Part shown: in pieces, positions 7,933-51,472 of the stretch | Layout: every line of letters starts with the position of its first letter | Numbering within the stretch: the first letter of the stretch is position 1 | Source of the DNA: Bacteroidota bacterium | GTDB taxonomy: Bacteria > Bacteroidota > Rhodothermia > Balneolales > HLUCCA01 | Assembly: GCA_020832235.1 (NCBI GenBank) | Contig: JAFIEZ010000003.1 | Coordinates: forward strand, 464,264-528,263 | Length of the DNA: 64,000 nucleotides | Reading direction: 5' to 3' | Translations under genes and position numbers: made by a program | The notes under the pieces: generated by a model | What the model was told of the DNA's origin: nothing | Database searches by the model: none | The model's input: the letters and a program-made list of their open reading frames with translations, nothing else

Positions 7933-8932
7933 TTACTTGTATTTGAGGTGCTACTCTATTGTACACAATTTCAGTGACTACATTACCTACGATCTGCAAC
8001 GTTTCAATGTCGATGACATCCATATTATCCATATGTGTATGCCAATGTGACGGAAACTCTACCGAGCGCCCGTCACTGGTAAAATGTATGATGTTTATCA
8101 TGGGTATACCAGCATATTCATTCACAATATAGTGGTCGTCTGCAACAAGTCCGCCAGGCATATCTAAAAAAGTATCTTCGTAGCCAAGCTCAGCAGCAAC
8201 TCTCCAAACGTTATCAACTAAACTCCTAGCATAACGCATCGAGTACCCTTCTTTAGGAAATGTGGCACCTTTTGCGCCTACAATATCTAAGAGAATACCA
8301 AATCGGGGCGCGTATCCAGGTACGGGTGGATTATTAGCCCAATATCGGGCTCCAAGAAAGTATTTATGAAGATCACTGGTCTGACCGTAATCTTCACCGT
8401 CGAAGAGTATGATATCTACACCAATTGGAGGAGGGTTTTGAGCCATTATACGTGCCAGTTCCAGTAAAATACCAACACCGCTACCACCATCATCGGCTCC
8501 CAGTATGGGTTCTTCCCGCCTGACAGGATCGTAATCCTCTTCGGCTCTGGGACGAGTATCCCAATGTGCTGCCAGTAAAATTCTATCGGTAGCATGTGGA
8601 TTGAATGCAGCAATGATGTTAGTCAACTCAAGTAGCTTATCGTCATAACCTTCCGCGGTGAAATCTTGGGCAAAGACATATTGACGACCAGCATATTCAC
8701 GCAAAACCTCAATTAAGTAATTTCGTGTCTGTTGATGTCCGGCAGAATTCGGATTTCTTGGCCCAAAATCTACTTGAGCTTGGATAAAGTCATATGCCGA
8801 CTGAGCTGAAAATGTTGGAACTTCTCTCCCCTGATTTTCCAGATGGAAACGGTCACTTATATTGTCTGATGTATTATTTCCACACCCATTGAATACAATT
8901 ACAAAAAACGTAGCGAGATATAGCTTATACAT
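7922..8932 (-). CDS. M28-family metallopeptidase / glutaminyl-cyclase-like lipoprotein
   Basis: The internal start MYKLYLATFFVIVFNGC (lipobox) avoids overlap with the SDR gene. Contains AHWDTRP, DDGGSGVG and FDGEDYG zinc-site motifs. Confidence 0.8.
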   Translation of the reverse strand: MYKLYLATFFVIVFNGCGNNTSDNISDRFHLENQGREVPTFSAQSAYDFIQAQVDFGPRNPNSAGHQQTRNYLIEVLREYAGRQYVFAQDFTAEGYDDKLLELTNIIAAFNPHATDRILLAAHWDTRPRAEEDYDPVRREEPILGADDGGSGVGILLELARIMAQNPPPIGVDIILFDGEDYGQTSDLHKYFLGARYWANNPPVPGYAPRFGILLDIVGAKGATFPKEGYSMRYARSLVDNVWRVAAELGYEDTFLDMPGGLVADDHYIVNEYAGIPMINIIHFTSDGRSVEFPSHWHTHMDNMDVIDIETLQIVGNVVTEIVYNRVAPQIQVNAN

Positions 8933-8933
8933 G

Positions 8934-9704
8934 TCAACCTTTCCTGTGAATGATAGTTCCAGAAGATTGGGCAGTTGGTACAACAAAGGTGTCTAGGATA
9001 TTCACATGAGGTGGTCTGTTCAACATAAATAGAATTATTTCTGCAATATCACCTGCCGTCAAGGGTTCTATGCCCGAGTAAACAGAATCTGCCTTTTTCC
9101 TATCGCCTTTAAAACGAACCATACTAAACTCAGTTTCCACAGCCCCGGGTGATACAAGCCCTACTCTAATATCCGTATGCCCCACATCCATCTTTAATGA
9201 CCTTGTAAAAGCGTGTACAGCGTGTTTTGTTGCACAATAAATCGATCCCGAAGGATAACTCTCATGACCGGCAATTGAACTGACATTGAGAATATGGCCT
9301 TCATTTCTGGCAAGCATACCTGGAAGAAAGAGCCTGGTCATGTAAATCAATCCTTTAATGTTGGTATCAATCATTTGCTCCCAATCATCTATAGCTGCGG
9401 TCTGCACAGGATCTAATCCAGCTGCAAGTCCAGCATTATTAACCAGAATGTCAACCGGATGATCGGAAAATTCTTGGTAGAAATCTTTACACTCTTGCAG
9501 GTTTGAAATATCAAATGCGGATGTAAACACTTGTACTCCAGTTCGATGTGTTATATCATGAGATATATCTTCTAACCTATCTTTACGCCGGCCAGTTAAT
9601 AGTAGATGTGCACCAGCGTCTGCGAGCTGGTATGCCAGCTCCTTTCCAATCCCGGAGGTTGCCCCGGTGATTATCGCAAATTTACCTTTAAGGCGATTAA
9701 TCAT
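8934..9704 (-). CDS. short-chain dehydrogenase/reductase (SDR)
   Basis: 256 aa. TGATSGIGKE cofactor motif, NNAG, and the YCATKHA catalytic YxxxK. Confidence 0.9.
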   Translation of the reverse strand: MINRLKGKFAIITGATSGIGKELAYQLADAGAHLLLTGRRKDRLEDISHDITHRTGVQVFTSAFDISNLQECKDFYQEFSDHPVDILVNNAGLAAGLDPVQTAAIDDWEQMIDTNIKGLIYMTRLFLPGMLARNEGHILNVSSIAGHESYPSGSIYCATKHAVHAFTRSLKMDVGHTDIRVGLVSPGAVETEFSMVRFKGDRKKADSVYSGIEPLTAGDIAEIILFMLNRPPHVNILDTFVVPTAQSSGTIIHRKG

Positions 9705-9710
9705 GAACGT

Positions 9711-11237
9711 TTATTGTAGTTCTGTAATTCGGCCCGCTTTTAGGATACTTATTTCATCAAAAGCAGCACCCATGAATTGCATCCCGATTGGCAATCCATC
9801 AGAATGAAAACCAATGGGAATACTTATACCGCATATCCCAGCCAGGTTTGCAGAAATCGTATAAATATCATTTAGATACATCTTTATTGGGTCGTCCTGA
9901 TTATCACCAAGGGGAAACGCTGTAGTTGGTGCAGTGGGAGAAACGATAACATCACAAGAAGCAAAAGCCCTGTCAAAGTCCTGGCGTATAAGCCTTCGAA
10001 TTCGTTGGGCTTTGCCATAGTATGCATCGTAGTAGCCGGCACTTAGCACATACGTACCTAACATTATTCTTCTCTTCACCTCAATACCAAAACCTTCCGA
10101 TCGAGTTTCTTTATAAAGTCGAATTAGTGGTGAATCTAGAGCATTGAGTTTCGTATGTATTAGTTGATTTGAAGCTTCATCAGCTAATTTGAGCTCATCT
10201 CTGAGAACTTTTTCTTCAACTTTCAACTCTTCACGTATTTTCTTTTGATCTGCTCTGTGACCGAACCTTACGCCATCGTAGCGCGCCAGATTACTCGATG
10301 CCTCTGCAGTAGCCAAAATGTAATATGTGGCAATAGCATATGGGGTATGCGGCAGACTTACAGGAACGAGAGTAGCACCGTCAGATTCAAATTGTTTAAG
10401 GCGATCTAGTATCTGTTGATGAATTTCGGGGTCGAGACCTTCAGAAAAGTACTCTTTAGGAACTCCAATACGCAGACCCTTTGCAGTAGCATTAAGTGCA
10501 GATAGGTAGTCAGGCACGGTATCAAAAGATGAAGAGCCATCATTATTATCCCTGCCGGCAATTACACTAAGAACAAGAGCGGCATCTTCCACTGTTTGGG
10601 TGAGTGGCCCTATACTATCAAATGACGAGGCATAAGCCACCAACCCATACCTTGAAACTCGTCCATAACTAGGTTTAAGACCTACCACACCACAGTATGA
10701 TGCAGGTTGCCTGATAGATCCGCCTGTGTCTGACCCTAGCGCCGCATTAGCCATGTCTGCCGCTACAGCAGCGGCGCTCCCTCCTGAAGACCCACCCGTG
10801 ACGCGATCTGGGTTATGAGGGTTTCGCGACGGACCATAAATTGAGTTCTCGGTGGATGAGCCCATTGCAAACTCATCCATATTCAAACGACTCAATAAAA
10901 TGGCATCTTCATCAAGTAGTTTCTGTATAGCGGTAGCATTATAGACGCTCTTAAAATTACGCAACATATTAGAAGCGCAAGAAACGACCTTTCCTTTCTC
11001 ATTAAGTACATCTTTTATACCGAATACAGAACCCGCCAGTGTTCCCGCTTTTCCGGAAGTTATCTTCTTTTCAATTTGTTCGGCCCTCGCAATTGACTCT
11101 TCTGGGTAATGCACAACAGAGATGTTTAGCTCTGCATTCTTTTGGTCAATCTGAGATATATAGTGCGAAACAATTTCCTTGAGGGACTCCCCGGCCAGTA
11201 ACTGCTGGCGTGTTTGAACAATACTACGGCTTTTCAA
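9711..11237 (-). CDS. gatA: Asp-tRNA(Asn)/Glu-tRNA(Gln) amidotransferase subunit A
   Basis: 508 aa. Amidase signature GGSSGGSAAAVAA, GSDTGGSIRQPAS, and EGFGIEVKRRIMLGTY. Confidence 0.9.
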   Translation of the reverse strand: MKSRSIVQTRQQLLAGESLKEIVSHYISQIDQKNAELNISVVHYPEESIARAEQIEKKITSGKAGTLAGSVFGIKDVLNEKGKVVSCASNMLRNFKSVYNATAIQKLLDEDAILLSRLNMDEFAMGSSTENSIYGPSRNPHNPDRVTGGSSGGSAAAVAADMANAALGSDTGGSIRQPASYCGVVGLKPSYGRVSRYGLVAYASSFDSIGPLTQTVEDAALVLSVIAGRDNNDGSSSFDTVPDYLSALNATAKGLRIGVPKEYFSEGLDPEIHQQILDRLKQFESDGATLVPVSLPHTPYAIATYYILATAEASSNLARYDGVRFGHRADQKKIREELKVEEKVLRDELKLADEASNQLIHTKLNALDSPLIRLYKETRSEGFGIEVKRRIMLGTYVLSAGYYDAYYGKAQRIRRLIRQDFDRAFASCDVIVSPTAPTTAFPLGDNQDDPIKMYLNDIYTISANLAGICGISIPIGFHSDGLPIGMQFMGAAFDEISILKAGRITELQ

Positions 11238-19105: not shown

Positions 19106-20422
19106 ATGGACTTATGGTTGACAACGTTAAGAGCTGGCGACCTATTCACAGATTTCGCTGTTTTAGGATGCCTGTTGCTAGTAGGAGGATTTTTACAATA
19201 TAGCGTTCCTGTTTTTAAACGAAACTACATACCTGCAAATGTTATAGCAGGATTGGTTGGTCTTATTCTGGCAACAACAGGGTTAACTTTTGGTTTAATA
19301 AGCAGTGAAAGGCTCGGTATTTACGTGTACCACTTATTAGCATTGTTATTCATCGCTCTTAGCTTGCGGGAGAATAAAAGTGGAACACGTGCTCAGAGTA
19401 TCAAGATAGGGTTGTTGTTTATTTCAACATACCTCATACAGGCCATTGTTGGACTATCCGTTGCATTTATGTTAATCTACACTGTATATCCCGATCTCTT
19501 TGCGGGTATAGGTCTGCTGATGCCACTGGCTTTTGGGATGAATCCAGGAATAGCATTCAGTATAGGTCAAAATTGGGAATATTTTGGCTTTGAACAGGGT
19601 GGCACTACGGGTCTTGCATTTGCTGCAATTGGGTTCACTGCAGCATATACCATTGGCATTATAATGGTAAAAAAAGGGCTGCACCAAAAAACAAGTACTC
19701 ATATTTTTGGTGATGATAGGCCTGAACCTACTGTATCGCTAAACCCCGAGACCAAGGTACTTCACTGGGCGTTAATTGGAGCGACATACCTGATTACCGT
19801 GATTGTATTAAATGGTGTGGAAATCGTTTTGAAAACTGTGAATATGGATCATGAAATTACCACGCTTTGGTCGTTTCACTTCATTTTTGCTGCACTGACA
19901 GCTCTATTATTCAGAAAAATAATCGATTTCATGAGCTTGAGTCACTGGATTCATGATAAAGAATTATCGGATAATGGAAATATATTAATGGATTTTATGG
20001 TTGTAGCGTCAATAAGTGCCATAACAATAGCAGTTATCAAGCAATATTGGTTAGCACTTATGGTAATGAGCATACTCGTTACCATAGTTACTTGGTTTTA
20101 CCTGAGTAGAATTACACGAATGCTGTACAAGGAACAGGCTCTTGAACGTAACGTTGCCATTTTTGGTAACATGACTGGTACAATGCAGTCAGCACTTGTT
20201 CTATTGCGAATTGTAGACCCGGAACACAAAACCTCTGTTAGCCAGGAGCTTGTCTATGGAAGCGGTCTTGCGTTATTATTCGGCTTCCCCTTACTGCTCA
20301 TCATAAATGCACCTGTACTTTACTTTGAAAACGTCCTAACCGGATTTTGGTTTAGTCTATTGCTGATTATACTATACTTAGCAATAATCATGCTGGCTAT
20401 TTGGCGTTTACGCAGCAGGTAG
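19106..20422 (+). CDS. polytopic membrane transporter, sodium/glutamate symporter (GltS)-like
   Basis: 438 aa and very hydrophobic. The N-terminal segment KRNYIPANVIAGLVGLIL resembles the GltS N-terminus. Starts 1 nt after the acyltransferase stop. Confidence 0.45.
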   Translation: MDLWLTTLRAGDLFTDFAVLGCLLLVGGFLQYSVPVFKRNYIPANVIAGLVGLILATTGLTFGLISSERLGIYVYHLLALLFIALSLRENKSGTRAQSIKIGLLFISTYLIQAIVGLSVAFMLIYTVYPDLFAGIGLLMPLAFGMNPGIAFSIGQNWEYFGFEQGGTTGLAFAAIGFTAAYTIGIIMVKKGLHQKTSTHIFGDDRPEPTVSLNPETKVLHWALIGATYLITVIVLNGVEIVLKTVNMDHEITTLWSFHFIFAALTALLFRKIIDFMSLSHWIHDKELSDNGNILMDFMVVASISAITIAVIKQYWLALMVMSILVTIVTWFYLSRITRMLYKEQALERNVAIFGNMTGTMQSALVLLRIVDPEHKTSVSQELVYGSGLALLFGFPLLLIINAPVLYFENVLTGFWFSLLLIILYLAIIMLAIWRLRSR

Positions 20423-20486: not shown

Positions 20487-20960
20487 ATGAATAGCAAAAA
20501 AGGGCAAGAAAGCAGAGTGCCAATATCATTCAACAAAAGCGAGTATAGGGTTTTGGTTCATGCTGTTTACCAGCAATTATTCATGTTAGAGAGTCTTGTT
20601 GACCATCAAAACACTAAGGAATTCGAAAACTTGAATTCCCTCAGCTCAAAACTGATAAAATACGCACCAGAGTTTGCGTCTGGCGATCTAATTGCAAGAG
20701 ATGTGATTGAGAATACAATATATCCTAACTCCGCTTTTTTGGATCTGGTGATGCAAATGATTAATGAGTATGATGAAGTATCTTTTTGGGAAGAGCTTAC
20801 CCATCGCCTGGCCGAACGAGATTTATTAAGAGATTACAAGGGGAAGGAGCTTACCAAGCTATCTGAAGAAGAATACCTCGAACTTCTTTCCGAAAAACTT
20901 GTGTATTACACAAAACTGTTCGGTGAAAATGGTCTTGAGAACGTGGAATTGAAGGACTAA
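20487..20960 (+). CDS. hypothetical helical protein
   Basis: 157-aa ORF. I recognise no motif. Confidence 0.4.
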   Translation: MNSKKGQESRVPISFNKSEYRVLVHAVYQQLFMLESLVDHQNTKEFENLNSLSSKLIKYAPEFASGDLIARDVIENTIYPNSAFLDLVMQMINEYDEVSFWEELTHRLAERDLLRDYKGKELTKLSEEEYLELLSEKLVYYTKLFGENGLENVELKD

Positions 20961-40046: not shown

Positions 40047-41249
40047 TTAATGCTGTGAAGATTTTAAAGCACTAGCAATGTCGTTCTTGATGTCGGTTAT
40101 ATGCTCCAACCCAACACTGATTCTTATTAAACCATCTGATATACCCACAGCCTCCCGATCAGCTATACTTAATTTTGAATGCGTAGTACTTGCAGGATGC
40201 GTAACAATGGTACGTGAATCGCCCAAATTGGCCGTTAGCGAGCAAAGTTTAATATTGTCGAGAAAAGCACGACCACGTTCTAGTCCTCCTTTAACCGAAA
40301 AACAAACCATTCCTCCCCCACTTTTCATCTGTTTTTGAGCCAGGTTGTACTGCGGATATGATTTCAGATAAGGGTATTTAACGGATTCAAGGTGCTGCAT
40401 GTGCTCCGCCTCTAACCATTCGGCCAGATGCATTGCGTTGTTAGCATGCTTCTCCATCCGTATTGACAATGTCTCCAAGCTTTTAGAAAAAATCCACGCA
40501 TTGAACGGTGACATTGCCGGTCCAGAATGACGAGCGAAAAAACGTAGTTCTTTAACAATATCTTTGCGACCTACAATAATGCCTCCAATTGCCCTACCCT
40601 GCCCGTCGATGTACTTTGTAGCAGAATGGGTAATAATATCTGCACCAAACTCAGATGGCTTCTGCACAAACGGTGTAGCGAAGCAATTATCGATATTGAG
40701 AAGGATATCATGCCGTTTGGCTATCTGACCAAGCATCTGTAGGTCTAATAGATCGAGTCCTGGATTGGATGGTGTTTCAGCAAAAATCATTCTAGTATTG
40801 GGCTGTATGGCTTTCTCCCAATCTTCTTCTGAAGCGGATGTATCAACATAGGTGTGCTTTATTCCCCATCTCGGTAAGAGCATCGTTAATACCTGATGTG
40901 TAGATCCAAATACAGCCCTTGACGCTACTACATGATCACCCTGCTTAAGAATCCCTGCAAGACTCACAAAGACGGCGGCCATACCAGATGCCGTTGTTAA
41001 TCCATCTTCTGCATCCTCCAAAAGGCACATCTTTTCAATTAACTCATTGGAGTTGGGATTTGAAAAGCGCGTATAGATATTTCCCTCGATTTCATCGGCA
41101 AACATGGCTCTGGCCTGCTCCGCATCGTCAAACATGAAACTGGATGTCATGTAAATAGGAACCGCATGCTCTCGGTTACCGGATCGTTCAGTTTGAGCAC
41201 GTATAGCTATCGTTTCAGGATGAAATCCGTCTGGCAAATCATTAGGCAT
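40047..41249 (-). CDS. PLP-dependent trans-sulfuration enzyme (O-succinyl/acetyl-homoserine sulfhydrylase or cystathionine gamma-synthase family)
   Basis: 400 aa. HSATKYIDGQGR is the PLP-lysine motif of the Cys/Met metabolism family. Confidence 0.85.
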   Translation of the reverse strand: MPNDLPDGFHPETIAIRAQTERSGNREHAVPIYMTSSFMFDDAEQARAMFADEIEGNIYTRFSNPNSNELIEKMCLLEDAEDGLTTASGMAAVFVSLAGILKQGDHVVASRAVFGSTHQVLTMLLPRWGIKHTYVDTSASEEDWEKAIQPNTRMIFAETPSNPGLDLLDLQMLGQIAKRHDILLNIDNCFATPFVQKPSEFGADIITHSATKYIDGQGRAIGGIIVGRKDIVKELRFFARHSGPAMSPFNAWIFSKSLETLSIRMEKHANNAMHLAEWLEAEHMQHLESVKYPYLKSYPQYNLAQKQMKSGGGMVCFSVKGGLERGRAFLDNIKLCSLTANLGDSRTIVTHPASTTHSKLSIADREAVGISDGLIRISVGLEHITDIKNDIASALKSSQH

Positions 41250-41251
41250 TA

Positions 41252-41671
41252 TCAGGTAAATTGTACTTCGTGGGTAATTTCTGCAGTGTTTTCAAGCATT
41301 TTAGACACAGAACAGTACTTTTCCATAGAAAGTGCCGCCGCTTTAAGCGCTTTTTGCTTCTGATCTTCCTCTAAACCACCAAGCTTAAAAATAACATGGA
41401 TTTTCTTGAACAAAGCGGGGACTTCTGCGGGATCTCTGTCGCCTGTAATCTCTACATCGATAGTACTAAGTTCGACTCTCTGCTTTCTTAAAATACTGAT
41501 GACATCGATGCTACTGCATCCACCTACACCCATAAGCAACAACTGCATGGGTCTGGCACCAAGATTATGACCGCCAATAGCGGGATTACCGTCCATGTGA
41601 ACCACATTTCCGGAATCATTTACAGCTTCCATGTGGAAGTCATTATCAATTCGTTTAACATGTACTTTCAT
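41252..41671 (-). CDS. OsmC-family protein
   Basis: 139 aa. GGCSSIDV and MEKYCSVSKML are the paired-Cys pattern of OsmC/Ohr. Confidence 0.8.
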   Translation of the reverse strand: MKVHVKRIDNDFHMEAVNDSGNVVHMDGNPAIGGHNLGARPMQLLLMGVGGCSSIDVISILRKQRVELSTIDVEITGDRDPAEVPALFKKIHVIFKLGGLEEDQKQKALKAAALSMEKYCSVSKMLENTAEITHEVQFT

Positions 41672-41682
41672 AGTGGTATAAA

Positions 41683-42597
41683 TTAATGAGCGTAATTAAA
41701 AACGGCGGCCTCTACACTTTCTTTGACCTTGAGTTCACCAAGCCAAGCACCTGGAAGAATTTCCTTTCCATGCAATGCACCAAGCAAACTGCCAAGATAG
41801 AAACCAACGGCTCCGCTGGTACCGCCAAGATTCGATGTAGCAACTAGTGCTTCTTCAAAGCTGTTATGATATTTAAAGAATGCACTTCCCACAAAGGCAA
41901 GCACGTTGTCTGCGTTATTATTGATATTTCCACAAGCTTCCGCAACTTTATCAAGCGGAGCGCTGAGTAAGGGTTCCGTGAGTTGCATTCGACGTTTCAT
42001 CTTGTAGTCGTGCGGAAAATGTACTTCTGCCTCATCTGCATATTCAATGGCTTTTCTTACAAACATAATTTTGTCAAAACTGGAGGGATCTGATTTGAAT
42101 AGATCAGCCAGTAACCTCAAATAAATCCACACACCTTGCTGCCAGACGACAGAAACTGGCGACAAACTTTTGAGCCAGTCGGCCATATCGCTTACGGAAT
42201 TTTTTCCTGCGCACAAGCGGTAAGCCGCAGGCATTGCAAAAGCGAATGTGTAATGCCCTTCATCAGGGAAAGGAGGCCAGGGGAATGTAGCACTTTTGGG
42301 CCAAAGCATCTGAAATCGGTTAAAGCTGTCTTTAATGTTAAAAGCAAATCCTTGCAAATCGGGTAAAGGTCGTGAGGCTTTTAAGACGGCGAGCATCGCT
42401 TCAGTTTGGCGGGCTGTGCTTCCGGCAGGAAGGGCATAAAAGGTCTCGGACTCTGGTCTGGGCACAAGATTTTCAATCTTCGTAAAGGTAGATTTAACTT
42501 GATCGGGTGTCATTCCTTCAGCGGGTAAGGCAAAGCTTTCCCCCAATGAAGCAGCCAGACAGCTGGCTAAAAAACGGTCATTTAAATTCGAACTCAT
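41683..42597 (-). CDS. ADP-ribosylglycohydrolase-like protein with substituted metal-site residues
   Basis: 304 aa. The N-terminal LAASLGESFALP stands in for the usual G-D-A-x-G. The C-terminal NLGGTSGAVGFYLGSLLGALHGKEILPGAW stands in for GGDTDT...GA.G...IP..W. Confidence 0.5.
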   Translation of the reverse strand: MSSNLNDRFLASCLAASLGESFALPAEGMTPDQVKSTFTKIENLVPRPESETFYALPAGSTARQTEAMLAVLKASRPLPDLQGFAFNIKDSFNRFQMLWPKSATFPWPPFPDEGHYTFAFAMPAAYRLCAGKNSVSDMADWLKSLSPVSVVWQQGVWIYLRLLADLFKSDPSSFDKIMFVRKAIEYADEAEVHFPHDYKMKRRMQLTEPLLSAPLDKVAEACGNINNNADNVLAFVGSAFFKYHNSFEEALVATSNLGGTSGAVGFYLGSLLGALHGKEILPGAWLGELKVKESVEAAVFNYAH

Positions 42598-42647: not shown

Positions 42648-44006
42648 TCAGTGCAATAATGTATGTAATTTATTTTCTTGTTTTGTTGATTCCGTTTCGA
42701 ACCAGTTCAAGATTTCACCAATCTGATTGCTTTGACTTGATTTTGCCATTATTCCAGGTGAACCTTTTATTAGGTAACTGCTTTTAAGCTCATCGTGTAC
42801 AAGCACTTTAGCATCAGATACCATTTTTGCGGCCAACCGATAAGCTTCTCTAAACGGCATACCCTGTGAAACCAATTTATTGGCCTCATGTGTGGCAAAT
42901 ACTTCCGCCGTAAGACTCCGCTCACAAGCCTCAACATCCACATCAACCCCGCGCAACGCCCGCTCAACAGCCGTAGCAAGCTCCTCAGCCGCAAACACCG
43001 CATCCATCACCGCACGCTTGCTGACCTGCAAATCCCGGTGATAACCCGACGTCAAATTAGCCCCCACCGAAGAAAGCTCCGCTGAAATTCCCGAAAACCG
43101 ATGATACGTCGCTCTGATCAACTCCCAGGCATCCGGATTGCGTTTCTGAGGCATAATACTGCTCCCGCTCGTCTGATCTTCACTCAGGCGCAGATACCCA
43201 AAAGCAGGATTCACAAACAAAATAACATCCGCAGCCAGACGGTTAAACGTAAGAGCAGCATAACCTAAAGCATCCACCACTCGTTTTTCCAAAACGCCCC
43301 TACCCGGCTGAACCGCCGTCACAGGCCACTGCACTTCGCTGAAACCCATCAAGTCCGCCGCAAGACCCCGCTCCAAGCCAAAATAGGGAACACCGTATCC
43401 TGCAGCGCTCCCCAACGGAGACCTGTCCACTTCCCGATACACCCCCAACACAGAACGCATATCAGCCAGCATCAAATCTTGCCAACCGGCCGCCCACGCA
43501 TCAACGGAAGAAGGCATCGCCGGTTGTGTATGCGTCATTCCTGCAAAAAAAACACCCTCATATCGCTCACCAAGCTCGCCCATCACCTGAAATATCCGTA
43601 TCCACGAACCAACAAGCTCACGCATGCGGTGCTTTAGAAACAAACGCACATCCGTAGCAACCTGATCATTTCTGGACCTGCCGGTATGAATACGCTTCCC
43701 CGCCTCTCCACAATCCGCAATGAGGTGCCGCTCAACACAGGAATGTACATCTTCATCGTGTTCCTCCAATTGGAATTCACCCATTTCCCATGAGCGATAG
43801 TACCGTTTCAATGCCTGTGAAACGGCGTCGTATTCTTGCTGAGAATAAATTCCGGCTTGTTTCAGAATGGCTGCCTGCGCCAGATTGCCGAGTAAATCAT
43901 AGGTTATCAGATACTGATCGTAGCTACGGTCTTCCCGGGTTGTAAATCGGTCAAACCAGTCGCGATTAAGCTGCGATTTATCGTCCTTTTGCCAAATTTT
44001 ACTCAT
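42648..44006 (-). CDS. argH: argininosuccinate lyase
   Basis: 452 aa. TGRSRNDQV, MTHTQPA and GSSIMPQKRNPD motifs. Confidence 0.95.
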   Translation of the reverse strand: MSKIWQKDDKSQLNRDWFDRFTTREDRSYDQYLITYDLLGNLAQAAILKQAGIYSQQEYDAVSQALKRYYRSWEMGEFQLEEHDEDVHSCVERHLIADCGEAGKRIHTGRSRNDQVATDVRLFLKHRMRELVGSWIRIFQVMGELGERYEGVFFAGMTHTQPAMPSSVDAWAAGWQDLMLADMRSVLGVYREVDRSPLGSAAGYGVPYFGLERGLAADLMGFSEVQWPVTAVQPGRGVLEKRVVDALGYAALTFNRLAADVILFVNPAFGYLRLSEDQTSGSSIMPQKRNPDAWELIRATYHRFSGISAELSSVGANLTSGYHRDLQVSKRAVMDAVFAAEELATAVERALRGVDVDVEACERSLTAEVFATHEANKLVSQGMPFREAYRLAAKMVSDAKVLVHDELKSSYLIKGSPGIMAKSSQSNQIGEILNWFETESTKQENKLHTLLH

Positions 44007-44010
44007 ATCA

Positions 44011-45114
44011 TCATGCCTGATTTATTCGTTCGAAATACATTTTAATAATGGATTTGTATAAAGAGACACCCGCATTCAATTGGGAGATTTCAATATGCTC
44101 ATTGTGCTTATGTGATAACTCGCTATGACCGGGACCTATTTTAACAACAGGGATGTCCGACAAGAACACCCAGTCTGAGGCTGTAGGACTCCCAAAAAAG
44201 ACCTGTCCTGATGCATCGAGCGCGCATTGTGCAATTATCGATTGATCATCGGTTTGCGTGCTGACAAAACGGTCACTGATAACCTCGACTTCGCACCCAA
44301 TTGCTGATTGTATGGTATGAAGTATACGCTCATTAGGAATTTCCGGAATGGTTCTGATATCTAAAATTACATCGGTGCTCTCGGGCATTGCGTTGTTTAC
44401 AGTACCAGCCGAAATCTTCGTGGGCGTTATTTTAATATTTCCAATAAATGGATTTTGCTCTGAAAATTGTAGGTCCCGAAGTTTTTGCAGTACATCTGCC
44501 ATCTCATAGATAGCATTTTTGCCATACACGCGAGCAGCATGACCCGATTCACCTCTTGTAGTGAGACGCACAACGAGGAGTCCTTTTTGAGCAACACAGG
44601 GTGCTAAAGACGTGGGCTCACCAATAAGAGCCGCATCGGGTCTTGGAAGCCTTCCCTCGTCCATCAGGGTTCTCAGATAAGCCATACCGTTAAATTCCCC
44701 CGAAGTTTCCTCGCAGATTGTAAGTGCGAAGCTCACTTTTCCGGCATTGGGCTTCCAGCCTTCATGGGCAAGTTCAAGCAGAGATCGTAGCATTGCCGTT
44801 CCACATCCCTTTGCATCTGTTGTGCCCCTGCCCCAAATACACCCATCTCTTTCCTCCGGACTGAACGGATCGCCGTGGTGATTTGCAGATGGTGGTACAA
44901 CATCGGAGTGGGAATTTAATAGCAGCCACCGACCGGGTTTCCCAGAGTCTATACTGAAAATGATATTGTCACCATAGCGATCCGTGTGCAAGAGTTTGGT
45001 TTTGGAAACAGCCTCCTCCAGCCAGTCGACCAACTCCTGTTCATTCGTGCTCAGACTTGGGAAACGCACCAGGGCTTTAAGTAATTCTTTTGGATCTTCC
45101 TGTAATAAGTTCAT
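44011..45114 (-). CDS. argE: M20-family deacylase (ArgE-like by context)
   Basis: 367 aa. HSDVVP, GRGTTDAKG, CEETSG and GESGHAA motifs. Confidence 0.75.
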   Translation of the reverse strand: MNLLQEDPKELLKALVRFPSLSTNEQELVDWLEEAVSKTKLLHTDRYGDNIIFSIDSGKPGRWLLLNSHSDVVPPSANHHGDPFSPEERDGCIWGRGTTDAKGCGTAMLRSLLELAHEGWKPNAGKVSFALTICEETSGEFNGMAYLRTLMDEGRLPRPDAALIGEPTSLAPCVAQKGLLVVRLTTRGESGHAARVYGKNAIYEMADVLQKLRDLQFSEQNPFIGNIKITPTKISAGTVNNAMPESTDVILDIRTIPEIPNERILHTIQSAIGCEVEVISDRFVSTQTDDQSIIAQCALDASGQVFFGSPTASDWVFLSDIPVVKIGPGHSELSHKHNEHIEISQLNAGVSLYKSIIKMYFERINQA

Positions 45115-45115
45115 A

Positions 45116-45892
45116 TCACGAATGGATTAACAGTGTTCCACGATGTTTCTTGAGGCCGGTCGGATTGGTTAGCCTTACAGCTCCTATCCCGGAAGCTAAT
45201 GCTTGAAACCCGGTATGCAGCTTGGGTATCATGCCTTGGTTTATCCATCCCTCCTGAATGCCTTTATCTCGTAAATCGGATGTCATCCGCGCAATGGGTT
45301 CGCCGGTGTGCCCAAGAACGGCCTCAGGCTCCATTAACATAACGATTTCTGACGCATTTAAGGCTGAAGCAATAGCGATTGAGAACGTATCAGCGTTAAT
45401 GTTTAATGTTCCTTCGTTTGCTGACCATGTAAGGCAACCGATAACCGGAATGAATCCTGCGTTGAGCAGTACGTGTAACAACGTTGGATTAACATGGTCA
45501 ATTTCACCTACAAGCTGAAAATCTACTGGCTTTCCATCCATAAGCAGCGGTTCTCTTCGGAGTGCAGTCGTAAGCTCTCCATCCGTGCCATTGAGACCTA
45601 CAGCGGAGATACCCTGTTTTCTCAGTGCGCTTACCAGGTTATTGTTTACACTTCCACCAACAGTGTACCGAAGCACCTCAAGAGCCTCAGGTGTAGTAAC
45701 CCTCCTGCCCTGTACCTGTACCGATTGCTGTCCTAATTTAGCAGATAAAGCGTTTATCTGTTTACCGCCTCCATGCACAATGACAACAGGGCGCGTGTGT
45801 TGGATGCAATCATCTACAAAGGAAAATATATGCTCCAGCGCTTCAGGCTGATCGGTTAAGCTTCCGCTGATTTTTACAACGACAGGTCCCAT
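45116..45892 (-). CDS. argB: acetylglutamate kinase (short form)
   Basis: 258 aa. VVKISGS, IVHGGGKQI, and NINAD. Confidence 0.9.
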   Translation of the reverse strand: MGPVVVKISGSLTDQPEALEHIFSFVDDCIQHTRPVVIVHGGGKQINALSAKLGQQSVQVQGRRVTTPEALEVLRYTVGGSVNNNLVSALRKQGISAVGLNGTDGELTTALRREPLLMDGKPVDFQLVGEIDHVNPTLLHVLLNAGFIPVIGCLTWSANEGTLNINADTFSIAIASALNASEIVMLMEPEAVLGHTGEPIARMTSDLRDKGIQEGWINQGMIPKLHTGFQALASGIGAVRLTNPTGLKKHRGTLLIHS

Positions 45893-46905
45893 AATTGCAT
45901 TAGGATTGATTTTTGAACATGCAGGCGGTTTTCAGCTTCATCAATATGTCGAGCATTGGGACTATCCAGCACGTCATCGCTCACGACAACATTTCGTCGA
46001 ACCGGCAAACAATGCATGAAATAGGCTTCGTTTGTATATTGCATTTTATCAGCGTCCAATGTCCAGTACTGATATTTTTCTTTGCGTAAACGTGCTTCTT
46101 CGAGCGGATTTTGATACACAATTGGAGATGCCCATGATTTGGCATATACCACATCGGCGCCGGTAAGGGCAGACTGTTGATCGTGGTCGATAACAAGGTT
46201 GTTTCCGTAGGTTGCACATTGCTGTTTAAATCGGTCTATAAACTGTGTATCGGGCACCATTTCGGGTGGGCAAGCCAGAGTTACCTGTATGCCACTTCTG
46301 CTAGCCATATCCAACACCGATACAGGAACCGCCTGTGGTAGTGGTGAGGGATGGGGCGCCCAGGTTAGAACTAGTTTCTTATCAGGCAATGCGTTCTTGC
46401 CAAATAACTCGCGTATGGTCATCCAGTCGGCCATAGCCTGACAAGGGTGCTCCATGGCACTCTCCATGTTGATAACCGGTACCTCGGCATAATGGGCAAC
46501 GGATTTCATGAGGCGCTCAGTGTAATCGGCATCTTGGTCTTTTAGCGTTGAAAATGCTCGAACACCGATGGCATCACAGTACCTGGATAACACCTGTATG
46601 GCCTCTTTGAGATGTTCTGTTTTATTGCCATTCATAACGGCGCCAAATTCGGTCTCGAGTGTCCAGGAACCGGATCCGGGTGAAATTATGGATGAACCTG
46701 CACCTAAGTGAATTGCCGCAGCCTCAAATGATACTTTTGTTCGCAATGAAGGGTTGAAAAACAGCAGTCCGAGGACCTTCCCCTCTGCCTTTCGGCTTCG
46801 GTAGCGAAGTTTTTTTAACTCATCGGCCCGGTCTAATAAAGCCAGAAGGTTTTGATTTGACCAGTCGTTTAGACTTATGAAATGTTTATTTTGAGATGAC
46901 ATCAA
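45874..46905 (-). CDS. N-acyl-L-ornithine carbamoyltransferase (AOTCase/SOTCase class)
   Basis: NPSLRTK carbamoyl-phosphate motif and HCLPVRRN. The proline-rich TWAPHPSPLPQAVP loop is, as far as I recall, characteristic of acyl-ornithine rather than classical ornithine transcarbamylases. Confidence 0.8.
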   Translation of the reverse strand: MMSSQNKHFISLNDWSNQNLLALLDRADELKKLRYRSRKAEGKVLGLLFFNPSLRTKVSFEAAAIHLGAGSSIISPGSGSWTLETEFGAVMNGNKTEHLKEAIQVLSRYCDAIGVRAFSTLKDQDADYTERLMKSVAHYAEVPVINMESAMEHPCQAMADWMTIRELFGKNALPDKKLVLTWAPHPSPLPQAVPVSVLDMASRSGIQVTLACPPEMVPDTQFIDRFKQQCATYGNNLVIDHDQQSALTGADVVYAKSWASPIVYQNPLEEARLRKEKYQYWTLDADKMQYTNEAYFMHCLPVRRNVVVSDDVLDSPNARHIDEAENRLHVQKSILMQLWDLSL

Positions 46906-48061
46906 TCAGTTCTTTTGCAAACTCCTCAATGGTTTGCGTTGGTGTTATAATGGGGGGCATGATGCGCATGACATCTGCTACATCAGATGTGCCGGTAATC
47001 CAGCCTCTGTGGAAAAGCTCGCGCACAACGGTTTTCGCTTCTACTGGCAATTTGAGCCCGATAAGGCATCCCCTTCCACGAATTTCAATAGGGGTATCTT
47101 TTAGTGCCTCAAGGAGTGTGTTAAACACCAGGGGAGCATGTGCCATGTGGTTCTTAACATCGATTTCCTCCAGCGTAGCTTCACAGGCCGCGCTAGCCAG
47201 CATTCCTCCAGCAAATGTTGACCCCAGATCCCCGTTACTCAGCTGACCGGCGATTCGGTCGGGCATCAAAACTGCACCAATAGGGAACCCGGCCGCAAGG
47301 CTTTTGGCCAAGGTGATAATGTCGGGTTTCATATTCACATGTTCACAAAACGAGAAGGTGCCGGTTCGTCCTACGCCGGTCTGTATTTCATCGAAGATGA
47401 GTAGCACGCCGTATTCGTCGCATATTGCACGAACATCTTGGTAATAGGCATCTTCAGCCATATTACACCCATTTATGCTCTGAATAGGTTCTATAATAAA
47501 TCCGGCAACATCGGTATTCATACTAAGAAATTCCCTTAGGGCAGATGCATTTCCAAACGGAACAAAGGAAACATCCGGCATCGCGAAACGATATGGTAGG
47601 CGCAGCTTCTCGCTATGTGTTACAGAAAGGGATGCAAGCGTTCTGCCATGCCAACCGCCTATCGTTGAAACTATTCGAGTTTTCCCGGTTATTTTCCAGG
47701 CCAGTTTGATGGCGTTTTCGTTGGCTTCCGTTCCAGAATTGCAGAAAAAAACTTTATCGAATCCTTCGGGGGCCATTTCAATGAGTTTCCGGGCTGCTTT
47801 TCCACGCGATGGATGATAAATTACATTGGAATAAAACATGAGCTGTTTAGATTGCTCATGAATTGCGTCAATCACACGCTGAGGGGAATGGCCTAGTATA
47901 GAAACGCAATGGCCACCATATAAATCGGTATATTTTTTCCCGTCGATATCGAACAAATAGATGCCTTCTCCGTGAGTAAATACAACGGGATATCGCGCAT
48001 AGGTAGCCGCTTCGTACTGGTCTTCTAAAGCTTTCCAGTCTATGTTTATATTATTTGTCAT
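46886..48061 (-). CDS. argD: acetyl(succinyl)ornithine aminotransferase
   Basis: 391 aa, class-III aminotransferase. NSGTEANE, FDEIQTG and TLAKSLA (PLP Lys) motifs. Confidence 0.9.
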   Translation of the reverse strand: MTNNINIDWKALEDQYEAATYARYPVVFTHGEGIYLFDIDGKKYTDLYGGHCVSILGHSPQRVIDAIHEQSKQLMFYSNVIYHPSRGKAARKLIEMAPEGFDKVFFCNSGTEANENAIKLAWKITGKTRIVSTIGGWHGRTLASLSVTHSEKLRLPYRFAMPDVSFVPFGNASALREFLSMNTDVAGFIIEPIQSINGCNMAEDAYYQDVRAICDEYGVLLIFDEIQTGVGRTGTFSFCEHVNMKPDIITLAKSLAAGFPIGAVLMPDRIAGQLSNGDLGSTFAGGMLASAACEATLEEIDVKNHMAHAPLVFNTLLEALKDTPIEIRGRGCLIGLKLPVEAKTVVRELFHRGWITGTSDVADVMRIMPPIITPTQTIEEFAKELIDVISK

Positions 48062-48084: not shown

Positions 48085-49107
48085 CTACAATATGATACCT
48101 GGATACATGAGCCCGGTTTCTTCAGGTAAATCGAACATCAAATTCAGGTTTTGAACCATCTGTCCTGCTGCACCTTTCCCCATGTTATCAATGGCCACTC
48201 CGATGCTGAATATATGTTTATCCTGCTGCCATCCGATGTCTGTAAATGCTGTTCCAACTACCGGCTTGAGCTCTGGCAAAGAAGAACGAAGTCGCACCAG
48301 CGGCGAATTATAATAAACACTTTCAAACGACTCTGTAAGGTCGTGAGTTTTCTTTAGTTCACCGGAAATATTCATCCAGATTCCGCGCACAAATGGACCA
48401 GATACAGGGGTAAAATGTATATCGGCTTCTACGCCAGCGATGCGCTGGGTATGGCGACTAACCTCACCGAGATGCTGATGTTTGAATACTTTGTAGGCTT
48501 TCACGTTTCCAAATCGATTCGAAAAGTGCGTTGTTTCTGAAGGCTTGGCACCCGACCCCGATGAACCTGTCATTCCGGTCACAAAATACCGATTGGAGAG
48601 TTCCGATAGCATCAACGGCAGTATTCCCATTTGAAGTGCCGTAGCAAAACAACCTGGATTGGCTACGTAGTCGGCATTGCGTATTTGCGCGCGATTATAC
48701 TCGGTGAGCCCGTAGGTAAATCGATTTAGTAATTGTGGATGAGGATGCTTACTTCCGTACCAGGTCAGGTAGTCATCTGGGTTCGGAAGACGGAAATCTG
48801 AACCGATATCGATTATCTTACCCTTATACCCTGCTTGGATGAGTTCATGCGCTGCATCTGCAGATTTTCCGTGAGGGAGAGCCAAAATCACAGCGTCGGA
48901 TGCATCGGCGGCGAGTTTTGATAAGGGCAGTATCGTCTGATGAAGGATTTCAGCGAAAGCCGGGTATATTTCATCGACGCTCTTCCCTGCCGAATCGTGA
49001 CCATAGAGATGGTGGATTTCAAATATAGGGTGCTGGAGCAGATATCTTATGGTTTCCATACCGGTATATCCGGAAGCACCTGCAATCGAGAGTTTAATTT
49101 TATTCAT
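48085..49107 (-). CDS. argC: N-acetyl-gamma-glutamyl-phosphate reductase
   Basis: 340 aa. GASGYTG, and ANPGCFAT with the catalytic Cys. Confidence 0.9.
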   Translation of the reverse strand: MNKIKLSIAGASGYTGMETIRYLLQHPIFEIHHLYGHDSAGKSVDEIYPAFAEILHQTILPLSKLAADASDAVILALPHGKSADAAHELIQAGYKGKIIDIGSDFRLPNPDDYLTWYGSKHPHPQLLNRFTYGLTEYNRAQIRNADYVANPGCFATALQMGILPLMLSELSNRYFVTGMTGSSGSGAKPSETTHFSNRFGNVKAYKVFKHQHLGEVSRHTQRIAGVEADIHFTPVSGPFVRGIWMNISGELKKTHDLTESFESVYYNSPLVRLRSSLPELKPVVGTAFTDIGWQQDKHIFSIGVAIDNMGKGAAGQMVQNLNLMFDLPEETGLMYPGIIL

Positions 49108-49109
49108 GG

Positions 49110-50189
49110 TTATACTCTAAAATCGTCGTTCGCAGTTGAAGGGAGTGTTAATGCCGACTCTGCGACCCACTCGCCAAGCTTTTGTGGATCACTCACGGCA
49201 TTGACCGCACGAATACCCATGGTATTCTGAATAAACTGAATGCCTACCAGGTTATCCGTTACCGGACCGGTAATGATGGTGATTCCCCTGCTGTATCGCT
49301 TTCTGAAAAAATGGTCGGCTGCCCAGCATCCCATAAAGTCCTGCGCGGCTACAACATGTACTGAGGTAAATTTTTGAATTTCTTTGTCCATAAGCAGACT
49401 GTCTACACCGTATGCTCCGATAATACCATCTCCAAATTCCAAGACAATTAAATCGGGATTCTGCTTGTTCAGGTGCTTGATGAGTCCTTTGGCCATTGGC
49501 AGAATATTTTTCCCGGTAGTTGATACCAGTCCAGCTTCTGAGAAATGCGTACAGGCTATGGCACCCTGGTCCATCATAGAACGCACATCCCGCATCAACG
49601 ATGCACCGGTTAGTTTTGCGGCGGCAACTTTGTACCCTTTGGCCGACAATTGTTTAACAATCTGAGTTGCGGCCATGGTTTTACCTACGTTCATGCAGGT
49701 ACCGGTTACGGCAATCAAAGGTACACTATTCGTTAGTTCATATTCCCATTCAATAGCAAAATCTTGAATACAAGCGTGCTTCATGATGTCATCATCTTTT
49801 ATCATCACAGCACCAACAACTTCCGCCCGCATTGCGGGACCGAAATCAGGATGTGGTGATTGACAGAATCCAATGATTCCACCCATATTGAGTATATGAA
49901 GTACATCTCCAGCTTTAATAGCACGTGGTACAACACCGCTATAACCGCGCAAGGCCTGTCGCTCACCGAGAGCACCTACAACGATATCTCCTTTTTTATA
50001 GGCAATAAAGTTGCCTTCTGCATTCTCAATTTTGTTATAGGTTTCTTTATCATCCAGCAGCTTAACCGCCACAACGTACCCTTCCTGGGCCACTATGCTT
50101 TTGGAAACTGGTAATTTCCCCTGCAGTTTAACGGCTCCTGAACTGGATGCGATAATATCGGCGGTTATGGTCTCAAATTCTGTAGTCAT
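49110..50189 (-). CDS. uncharacterised 359-aa protein with GT-x3-VGKT P-loop-like motif, embedded in the arg operon
   Basis: Motif IAVTGTCMNVGKTMAATQIVKQLSAKGYKVAAAKLTG, then DLIVLEFGDG. Overlaps the argG stop by 4 nt and lies 2 nt from the argC start. Confidence 0.75.
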   Translation of the reverse strand: MTTEFETITADIIASSSGAVKLQGKLPVSKSIVAQEGYVVAVKLLDDKETYNKIENAEGNFIAYKKGDIVVGALGERQALRGYSGVVPRAIKAGDVLHILNMGGIIGFCQSPHPDFGPAMRAEVVGAVMIKDDDIMKHACIQDFAIEWEYELTNSVPLIAVTGTCMNVGKTMAATQIVKQLSAKGYKVAAAKLTGASLMRDVRSMMDQGAIACTHFSEAGLVSTTGKNILPMAKGLIKHLNKQNPDLIVLEFGDGIIGAYGVDSLLMDKEIQKFTSVHVVAAQDFMGCWAADHFFRKRYSRGITIITGPVTDNLVGIQFIQNTMGIRAVNAVSDPQKLGEWVAESALTLPSTANDDFRV

Positions 50190-51385
50190 GATAGCTTATT
50201 CTGATGTGCAATTTTTGAAGTTAGGCCGTATAGTTTAGAGAAAGCGCGGGCTTCTTCGCCGGTCCATCCGGTGCTTTCTTCTCCATATTTTGCGAAGCTG
50301 GCATTCATAAGGCTATTTGGAGATGAAGCACCTAGTGGAAACAGGTTTCCATGACCAATGTATAGTCTGGAATCTCCCTTAACCAGCTGCTGGGAACTGT
50401 CAAAGAATGCTTCAATGTCGCGCATTACAGGGTCATAATAATGCCCTTCATGCAGGAGCATCCCATACATGTCGGCTTGTTGATCTTTTAGCTGTCGTTG
50501 CCACTTGGTTAACACTAGTTTCTCTAGTTCTTTGTGGGCAAGATATACAATGGTGGCGACTGGAGCTTCAAATCCAATGCGGCCCTTGATGCCAATAATG
50601 GTGTCACCCAGGTGCATTCCCCTGCCAACACCATGTTTTCTGCCACATTCTAGCAAATACTGAAGTAGTTCCTTGTTCTTCATCTTTTCGCCATTGACGG
50701 CAAATGGCAACCCATTGTGGAACGATATCGTGAGCTCCTCAGCCTGCTCTGTAAACTGCGATGGCGATTTAAGATGAGGAAATGCATCAAACGGTAGCGA
50801 CTGATCAGAAGTTGTGGTTTCTTTACCACCAATGGTTGTGCCCCAAATACCGTCATTAATCGAATACTGTGTTGTTTTCTCCTCTACATGAAACCCCTTG
50901 CTTTGAAGATACTTCGTTGTATCGGTTCGCGTTAACTCTTTGTCTCGAATAGGTGTAATAATTTCAGCACCAGGAATTAACGTACGTAATGCCGCATCAA
51001 ATCGAACCTGATCATTACCGGCTCCGGTGGATCCATGAGCAACAGCTTCTGCACCAATACGTCGGGCATATTCAGCAATCTGTTCTGCCTGAATGAAACG
51101 CTCTGCTCCAACCGATAGCGGATATGTTCTGTCGCGAAGAACGTTCCCTTTAATTAAATTTGAGATTATTCTATCGTAGAGCATGTCAAAGGCCGGAACA
51201 CACTCAAAATGCGCTGCCCCCAACTCTTTTGCCCGCTTATCAACAAGCTGTATTTGCTCATCATCCATCCCAAGACAATCAACCAATACGGCATGAATTT
51301 CAGCCTGGTAGTTTTCAATTAAGTACGGAATACAAAAACTGGTGTCTAGTCCGCCACTATAGGCAAGTACAATCTTTTTAGTCAT
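50186..51385 (-). CDS. argG: argininosuccinate synthase
   Basis: 399 aa. LAYSGGLDTS, AHGSTGAGNDQVRF. Confidence 0.95.
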   Translation of the reverse strand: MTKKIVLAYSGGLDTSFCIPYLIENYQAEIHAVLVDCLGMDDEQIQLVDKRAKELGAAHFECVPAFDMLYDRIISNLIKGNVLRDRTYPLSVGAERFIQAEQIAEYARRIGAEAVAHGSTGAGNDQVRFDAALRTLIPGAEIITPIRDKELTRTDTTKYLQSKGFHVEEKTTQYSINDGIWGTTIGGKETTTSDQSLPFDAFPHLKSPSQFTEQAEELTISFHNGLPFAVNGEKMKNKELLQYLLECGRKHGVGRGMHLGDTIIGIKGRIGFEAPVATIVYLAHKELEKLVLTKWQRQLKDQQADMYGMLLHEGHYYDPVMRDIEAFFDSSQQLVKGDSRLYIGHGNLFPLGASSPNSLMNASFAKYGEESTGWTGEEARAFSKLYGLTSKIAHQNKLS

Positions 51386-51399
51386 CTGTAAATATCCCT

Positions 51400-51437
51400 A
51401 AAATAAAAAAGGACAGAACCTTTTGAAGATTCTGCCC
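51400..51437 (-). terminator. attenuator terminator in the argG leader
   Basis: On the minus strand, GGGCAGAATC-ttcaaaa-GGTTCTGTCC is followed by TTTTTTATTTT. It ends 14 nt before the argG ATG. Confidence 0.75.
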
Positions 51438-51472
51438 TTTCGATAAAGTTACATTCCACGATGCAAACAACA

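Follow-up and report, generated by a model that had tools for sequence, protein, structure and literature searches.

A P-Loop Protein Encoded between argG and argC as a Candidate N-Acyl-L-glutamate Synthase in a Balneolales-Type Arginine Operon

The first step of arginine synthesis, the N-acylation of glutamate, varies more than any other step of the pathway and repeatedly appears as a gap when metabolism is reconstructed from genomes. The present analysis concerns an open reading frame (ORF) encoding 359 aa, here called gene X (protein X), which lies between argG and argC on a stretch of 64,000 nucleotides (the window) of a Balneolales-type Bacteroidota/Rhodothermota metagenome-assembled genome (MAG; GenBank assembly GCA_020832235.1, contig JAFIEZ010000003.1, forward-strand positions 464,264 to 528,263). 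Classical ArgA and NAGS/K are fusions of an amino-acid-kinase (AAK) domain with a GNAT domain. Synthases of N-succinyl- or N-acetylglutamate of the BT3761/Cabys_1732 type from Bacteroidota, which share with X the proposed step, the operon position beside argG and the pathway with an acyl-ornithine carbamoyltransferase, differ from it in having the GNAT fold in place of a beta-domain and a P-loop domain; BT3761 is supported genetically by arginine-rescued fitness defects. A closer relative was described in the GapMind 2026 preprint, in which Steroidobacter ACG33_RS14135, a hypothetical protein of an arg cluster, was predicted to be an 'alternative N-succinylglutamate synthase' on the grounds of gene neighbourhood, mutual exclusion with ArgA homologues (with which the predicted synthase never co-occurs), the residue at position 92 of the carbamoyltransferase ArgF' and a weak Foldseek match (E 1.4e-7, with a root-mean-square deviation of 5.6 Å) to PDB entry 7XRJ. 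That entry is DgcN, a DUF1611 protein composed of PF07755 with PF17396 in Pfam and a D-glutamate N-acetyltransferase (EC 2.3.1.312).

X is proposed here, with a probability of roughly 0.6, to be the missing first enzyme of the window operon, that is, a synthase of N-acyl-L-glutamate with no relationship to ArgJ or to ArgA of the GNAT type, with an acyl-CoA-dependent mechanism being the more likely one. This assignment is favoured because the gene order around X is kept in two phyla, because X occurs fused to an AAK domain, because the accompanying ArgF' enzymes are of a non-acetyl type, and because the operon appears to be attenuated through arginine codons. The function of the enzyme family had already been predicted, independently and for an orthologue (GapMind 2026), and the window gene is an additional member. 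New here are the X-AAK fusion, the structurally unmatched N-terminal domain, a BioD-like catalytic core instead of DUF1611 membership, a family range widened to Balneolales and Rhodothermales, with ArgF' of the Thr and Gln types, and the arginine leader attenuator.

The features of the locus are collated in Table 1. The operon genes are arranged in the order argG-X-argC-argD-argF'-argB-argE-argH, and every arginine-specific step except glutamate N-acylation is encoded by them. X is translationally coupled to both of its neighbours: its ATG start codon shares 4 nt with the argG stop codon (as ATGA), and its TAA stop codon lies 2 nt ahead of the argC ATG. The original prediction, which had been made from the nucleotide sequence of the window, had described this 359-aa ORF with the same overlap and gap, and had listed the operon genes and noted that no GNAT, ArgA or ArgJ protein was among them; coordinates, junction sequence and Pfam and NCBIfam assignments bear this out. 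GNAT, ArgA and ArgJ were also absent from 20 further size-appropriate ORFs, the search being limited to the 64-kb window, and X itself gave no GNAT (Acetyltransf) or ArgJ domain match at E<=0.01 with Pfam or NCBIfam. The longest ORF of argF' begins at a TTG located 20 nt into the end of argD; its codon 2 is ATG, and the true start may, as judged from the sequence, lie one codon downstream of the TTG.

Table 1. Positions in the window of the operon genes, of the domains and motifs of X, and of the elements upstream of argG.
Feature	Position	Strand	Basis or reading
Leader peptide MIQTINIIIRRRLRREISFEKIMSES (stop), 5 Arg in 6 consecutive codons	51473..51553	(-)	leader ORF
Terminator-like hairpin, 16 pairs then T-run, about 20 nt before argG ATG	51407..51441	(-)	probable attenuator terminator
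argG, argininosuccinate synthase	50186..51385	(-)	TIGR00032, 285 bits
Gene X, candidate non-GNAT N-acyl-L-glutamate synthase ('alternative ArgA')	49110..50189	(-)	359-aa ORF, homologues and arg synteny
X, N-terminal all-beta domain, aa 1-145, with E55, R77, P88 and motif GALGERQALRGYSG	49755..50189	(-)	AlphaFold model
X, C-terminal BioD-like/SIMIBI P-loop domain, aa about 150-349	49143..49742	(-)	model, Foldseek, hhalign
X, Walker A GTCMNVGKT, aa 163-171	49677..49703	(-)	alignments
X, Lys192, strand beta-2, aligned to BioD Lys37 (GYK-PV)	49614..49616	(-)	BioD alignments
X, Walker-B-like EFGDG, aa 251-255, E251 aligned to BioD E115 (VLVEGAGG)	49425..49439	(-)	BioD alignment
argC	48085..49107	(-)	TIGR01850, 331 bits
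argD-type N-acylornithine aminotransferase	46886..48061	(-)	Pfam and NCBIfam
argF', N-acylornithine carbamoyltransferase	45874..46905	(-)	NF003384, 427 bits
argB, N-acylglutamate kinase	45116..45892	(-)	TIGR00761, 180 bits
argE-like M20 ArgE/DapE-type deacylase, probable N-acylcitrulline deacylase	44011..45114	(-)	Pfam and NCBIfam
argH, argininosuccinate lyase	42648..44006	(-)	Pfam and NCBIfam

Homologues of X were collected at E<=1e-3. A word-indexed search returned 527 proteins, most of them of Balneolales or Rhodothermales origin and almost every one annotated as 'hypothetical'. When 1.84 billion cluster representatives were searched exhaustively with a profile, 1582 were recovered (205 at E<=1e-30); the cluster members of the distant representatives are labelled almost only 'hypothetical protein'. 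The Steroidobacteraceae representative P0130 gives a full-length alignment with X (349 aa, 38% identity, E 2e-78 by BLASTP; profile E 5.4e-93), and the close relatives of P0130 in reference genomes (75-92% identity) belong to Steroidobacteraceae or to related gammaproteobacterial MAGs. By this sequence comparison, in which Steroidobacteraceae MAG orthologues took the place of ACG33_RS14135 itself, X is an orthologue, in another phylum, of the family described in the GapMind 2026 preprint. The function is predicted in both cases. The two systems also share the slot in argG-X-argC-argD-argF'-argB and an ArgF' that lacks Glu92; they differ in that the window cluster belongs to a Balneolales-type organism and contains an ArgE-like deacylase gene, in that its ArgF' has Thr instead of Ala, and in that an apparent leader-peptide attenuator precedes its argG, whereas argR is found at this place in the Steroidobacteraceae locus L088.

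Gene neighbourhoods were compared for 166 loci from two phyla, and a locus entered the adjacency count for a given side only when its sequence extended 1.5 kb or more in that direction. In the Balneolales/Rhodothermales set (86 loci), 74/75 have argG as the adjacent upstream gene and 71/72 have argC as the adjacent downstream gene; the corresponding counts for the 80 Steroidobacteraceae loci are 65/74 and 70/71. Overall, argG and argC are the neighbours of X in about 95% of the loci, the Steroidobacteraceae proteins being only 36-40% identical to X of the window. The order in locus L088 is argR-argG-X-argC-argD-argF'-argB-argH, and branches at 33-37% identity show the arrangements argG-X-argC-argF'-argB-argE, argH-X and argG-X-argF-argH-argS. 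As to argD, it is part of the cluster in the window, in the closest relatives of the window and in 32 of the 49 long Balneolales/Rhodothermales loci; it is missing between argC and argF' in many Balneolales clusters (L012-L015, L018, L021-L033 and others).

The distribution of the deacylase gene bears on the possibility that X is an ArgJ-like transacylase by which the acyl group of N-acyl-citrulline or N-acyl-ornithine is returned to glutamate. An argE-like M20 gene is present in the window operon and in the cluster of 44 of the 49 long Balneolales/Rhodothermales loci, and in none of the 56 Steroidobacteraceae loci (within L087-L166) whose sequence continues for 7.5 kb or more downstream; Steroidobacter was likewise reported to be without a recognisable N-acylcitrulline deacylase (GapMind 2026). 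Some activity must remove the acyl group in the Steroidobacteraceae, which have X and no deacylase gene in the cluster, and a transacylase could provide it. We nevertheless regard this role as very improbable: the M20 deacylase accompanies X in the window operon and in most of the long related loci, a P-loop with an intact nucleotide-binding set would be unnecessary for transacylation, and such a cycle would still require a synthase for priming.

A natural fusion of X was found in locus L174, where an ORF of 673 aa (7860-9881, (+)) consists of a complete X followed by an ArgB/NAGS-type AAK domain; the fusion was also found in L175 and L176. Its X part is 34% identical to X of the window (E 5e-59) and carries all family motifs. 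Among NCBIfam models, its kinase domain is matched best by argB (TIGR00761, 127 bits against a cut-off of 151) and by the kinase-like domain of ArgA. Four contigs, from three or more metagenome samples, carry identical copies of the called fusion product of 626 aa, so that the fusion is not an assembly artefact. The gene stands alone and is divergent from an arginase-family gene. The fusion thus resembles classical ArgA and NAGS/K in that an AAK domain is paired with a second module, X taking the place of GNAT; it differs from them in that the domain order is reversed and the X module is unrelated to GNAT, and X of the window is a stand-alone protein. An apparent fusion of X with a partial ArgC (P0255, 687 aa) was set aside as evidence: it is represented by a single ENA contig and matches the profiles in three separate stretches, so that a frameshift or gene-calling artefact is possible.

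The acyl group was approached through ArgF'. In an alignment with the mutant series 3l02/3l05/3l06 of the Xanthomonas N-acetylornithine transcarbamylase (AOTCase), Thr96 of the window ArgF' (46618-46620) occupies the position of Glu92. With Glu at position 92 the enzyme is specific for acetyl, and with A, P, S or V there it is switched to succinyl (GapMind 2026). Among 125 ArgF' proteins encoded beside X homologues, the equivalent residue is A in 92, T in 23, Q in 8, S in 2 and E in none. Because of this residue, succinyl is favoured over acetyl, and N-succinylglutamate rather than N-acetylglutamate is the likely product of X.

Upstream of argG, a leader ORF with a run of arginine codons is followed by a terminator-like hairpin (Table 1). 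The argG leader (273 nt) folds with -54 kcal/mol (z = -5.1 relative to shuffled controls), and Rfam assigned no family to it, the DapZ match being insignificant. Most Balneolales/Rhodothermales loci have an Arg-rich leader ORF about as far upstream of argG, and the Steroidobacteraceae loci have none; L088, with argR at this place, is the sole Steroidobacteraceae locus whose upstream gene was checked. Leader and hairpin probably constitute an attenuator through which the operon would be controlled by arginine in a ribosome-mediated manner. With such elements ahead of the operon, expression of X should follow arginine supply.

Structure prediction followed by fold search, as proposed in the original prediction, gave a confident two-domain model (AlphaFold2 with an alignment of 28 sequences; predicted local distance difference test (pLDDT) 89.4, predicted template modelling score (pTM) 0.88). 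Residues 1-145 are nearly all beta-strands, and residues from about 150 to 349 form an alpha/beta P-loop domain. Modelled alone, the N-terminal domain gave pLDDT 87.5 and pTM 0.84, and Foldseek found no solved structural relative of it in the PDB (best E 0.35, TM <=0.3). The full-length model matched only SIMIBI-class P-loop proteins in the PDB, namely the signal recognition particle (SRP) protein SRP54 with FtsY, HypB and BioD (E about 1e-5, probabilities up to 1.00). In 67 diverse family members, down to 25% identity, P88, G169, K170, K192 and E251 are invariant and E55, R77, T171, D201, D218 and D284 near-invariant (T171 conserved in at least 90%). With its Walker A motif, beta-2 lysine, acidic Walker B motif and fold similarity, the modelled X carries a BioD-like/SIMIBI P-loop NTPase fold.

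The same fold matches raise the question of an accessory or regulatory NTPase, for example a metallochaperone of the SIMIBI type serving the M20 deacylase, or a partner of ArgB that senses nucleotides, with N-acylation being supplied by an unlinked gene. HypB (TMt 0.61) and the SRP-type GTPases are among the matches and have relatives that act as chaperones or regulators, the AAK fusion would also fit a regulatory partnership with ArgB, and the search for an acyltransferase covered the 64-kb window. A HypB-like chaperone of ArgE was rejected, since X is kept in the Steroidobacteraceae clusters with an argE-like gene in 0/56 loci and neither a guanine-specificity motif nor a metal-binding Cys/His motif is conserved in the family. 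Non-co-occurrence of the X family with ArgA (GapMind 2026) would be expected for a replacement and not for an accessory protein, and the strongly conserved beta-domain with its Arg and Glu suggests a substrate site. An accessory role of any of these kinds is accordingly considered improbable, more so than the ligase activity discussed below. The original prediction had proposed that X 'supplies or regulates' glutamate N-acylation; synteny, fusion, ArgF' and attenuator support the first of these roles, and nothing found speaks specifically for the second.

Relationship of X to DUF1611 and DgcN was assessed separately. Curated libraries gave only sub-threshold matches to X, located on residues about 156-200 (CbiA 21 bits, bioD 20 bits, MobB 18 bits, and DUF1611_C 18 bits with a gathering cut-off of 25 and a match to profile positions 12-56 of 201). 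Among the 67 family members, weak PF07755 matches were obtained with 17, which does not surpass CbiA (27 members) or MobB (26 members); in ten divergent members each DUF1611 match was confined to profile positions of about 7-56 of 201, which is the Walker A region. PF17396 (DUF1611_N) matched neither X nor any of the 67 members. Searches of PDB sequences with X and with two family profiles gave generic P-loop matches only (BioD, FtsY, MobB) and no DUF1611 structure, and 7XRJ was not recovered by the family profiles at E<=10; nor was it among the best 50 Foldseek matches of X (all E<=2.4e-4), which were SRP GTPases, HypB and BioD. Membership of X in DUF1611 was therefore rejected, the similarity being confined to the Walker A region and DUF1611_N being absent; any relationship between X and DgcN appears remote and confined to the P-loop domain. 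The two proteins are alike in having a P-loop-type domain and in using glutamate as the acyl acceptor (proposed acceptor in the case of X); they differ in that DgcN acts on D-glutamate in catabolism, whereas X belongs to an operon for L-arginine biosynthesis, and in that the N-terminal domain of X is all-beta, has no relative in the PDB and is not DUF1611_N.

These results also settle what had been read from the sequence of X beforehand. The peptides IAVTGTCMNVGKTMAATQIVKQLSAKGYKVAAAKLTG and DLIVLEFGDG are both present in X, and the beta-rich N-terminus was recovered in the model as residues 1-145, almost all of them in strands. The resemblance to the P-loops of BioD-like and DUF1611-like proteins holds for the Walker A motif, with matches to the corresponding library models that stay below threshold; the suggestion of DUF1611 membership was not upheld. 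The remark that a DUF1611 member has been reported to N-acetylate glutamate was essentially right, DgcN being a D-glutamate N-acetyltransferase.

The profile of X aligned with Escherichia coli BioD with 79% probability across 118 columns (hhalign), the GKT of the Walker A motif being placed on the BioD P-loop, K192 on the lysine of GYK-PV and E251 on the glutamate of VLVEGAGG. The Walker A motif GTxxxVGKT, the beta-2 lysine and a Walker B motif of the type hhhhEGxGG are shared by X with BioD and CobB/CobQ-type enzymes, and the BioD structures are matched by Foldseek with E of about 5e-5 and TMt 0.5-0.6. X differs from BioD by its additional beta-domain of 145 aa and by its genomic context, and it scores far below the level set for dethiobiotin synthetase (20.3 bits against the TIGR00347 equivalog cut-off of 83.3). 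The BioD residues that correspond to the conserved set of X are those of the ATP-Mg site and of substrate activation.

This match brings in an ATP-dependent carboxylate-amine ligase acting at the same pathway step, in which succinate or acetate would be activated on the P-loop as the acyl phosphate and then attacked by the alpha-amino group of glutamate, no acyl-CoA being involved. Chemistry of the acyl-phosphate type is that of BioD, of CobB/CobQ and of the synthetase domain of CTP synthase. It is with BioD-type enzymes that the P-loop domain of X aligns best (FtsY and BioD in the PDB profile search, besides the hhalign and Foldseek values given above), and the Walker A Lys and Thr, Lys192 (Lys37 of BioD) and Glu251 (Glu115) correspond to the set that binds ATP-Mg and the activated oxygen. 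Two archaeal members of the family point in the same direction, as their genes overlap by 4 nt with genes of RimK/LysX-like ATP-grasp ligases (L167, 7132-9092, a Bathyarchaeota contig; L173, 7001-9878, GCA_046540935.1), and are thus translationally coupled to ATP-dependent amide-forming enzymes for glutamate-type substrates; no arg genes are located near them on these two contigs. The Walker motifs would be expected to be conserved also if the pocket bound the ADP moiety of CoA, however, and the gene neighbourhood says nothing on the acyl donor. We know of no free-acid ligase for this step in any arginine pathway, and DgcN is classed as an acyl-CoA-type transferase (EC 2.3.1.312). Ligation is on balance considered unlikely, though less so than an accessory role, and the conserved residue set shared with the ATP-Mg site of BioD makes it a rival to be taken seriously. 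A wider form of the idea, to which we give no greater credence, is that X represents a new enzyme class in which an unseen beta-fold is combined with a BioD-like P-loop for ATP-dependent ligation of succinate and glutamate through an acyl phosphate, and that its archaeal relatives, together with the RimK-like ligases, build other N-acylated acidic amino-acid compounds.

For the synthase reading, acyl transfer from CoA is favoured because this class of reaction is used by DgcN, to our knowledge the one amino-acid N-acyltransferase with a catalytic P-loop domain that has been characterised, and because all ArgA analogues known to us use acyl-CoA. On this reading, X would transfer an acyl group, most likely succinyl, to the alpha-amino group of L-glutamate. 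By analogy with DgcN, the P-loop domain would bind the 3'-phospho-ADP part of succinyl-CoA or acetyl-CoA; the acidic substrate would be held at the interface with the beta-domain, where Arg77 could bind a carboxylate. ArgB would phosphorylate the product, ArgC would reduce it and ArgD transaminate it, after which ArgF' would add the carbamoyl group; deacylation would fall to the M20 ArgE-like enzyme and the last steps to ArgG and ArgH.

Several points weigh against this proposal. The match of Lys170, Thr171, Lys192 and Glu251 to the ATP-Mg site of BioD would suit ATP chemistry no less well than the binding of CoA. The link to DUF1611 and DgcN appears weak for X, with matches below threshold and limited to the Walker A region, an N-terminal domain unlike anything solved, and 7XRJ not retrieved. 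Thr and Gln at the Glu92 position of ArgF' lie outside the published E92 mutagenesis, which makes the acyl group uncertain in the clade of the window. The archaeal branches may differ in function, and the chemistry and substrates of the family may be broader; the function proposed here is not transferred to those branches. Finally, the synthase function of the Steroidobacter family member is itself offered as a prediction only (GapMind 2026).

Downstream of argH, three further genes follow on the same strand with short gaps (40047-42597, (-)). They encode an ADP-ribosylglycohydrolase-family protein (41683-42597, (-)), an OsmC-like protein (41252-41671, (-)) and a protein of 400 aa (40047-41249, (-)) which, by the look of its sequence, we take to be a pyridoxal-phosphate enzyme of Cys/Met metabolism. 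Elsewhere in the window, the ORFs at 19106-20422 (+) (438 aa) and 20487-20960 (+) (157 aa) gave no Pfam match at E<=0.001.

The conserved arginine-codon attenuator suggests that in these Bacteroidota-related lineages arginine synthesis is controlled by ribosome-mediated attenuation and not by ArgR. The function of X is directly testable, with the X-AAK fusion, the unmatched N-terminal domain and the residues R77, K170, K192 and E251 as experimental handles. If the proposal is true, X would represent a third route to the protection of the amino group, neither GNAT nor ArgJ, with a P-loop protein as its scaffold. In that case, members of the Balneolales, Rhodothermales and Steroidobacteraceae and of many uncultured lineages could correctly be recognised as arginine prototrophs, where they would otherwise be scored as auxotrophs.

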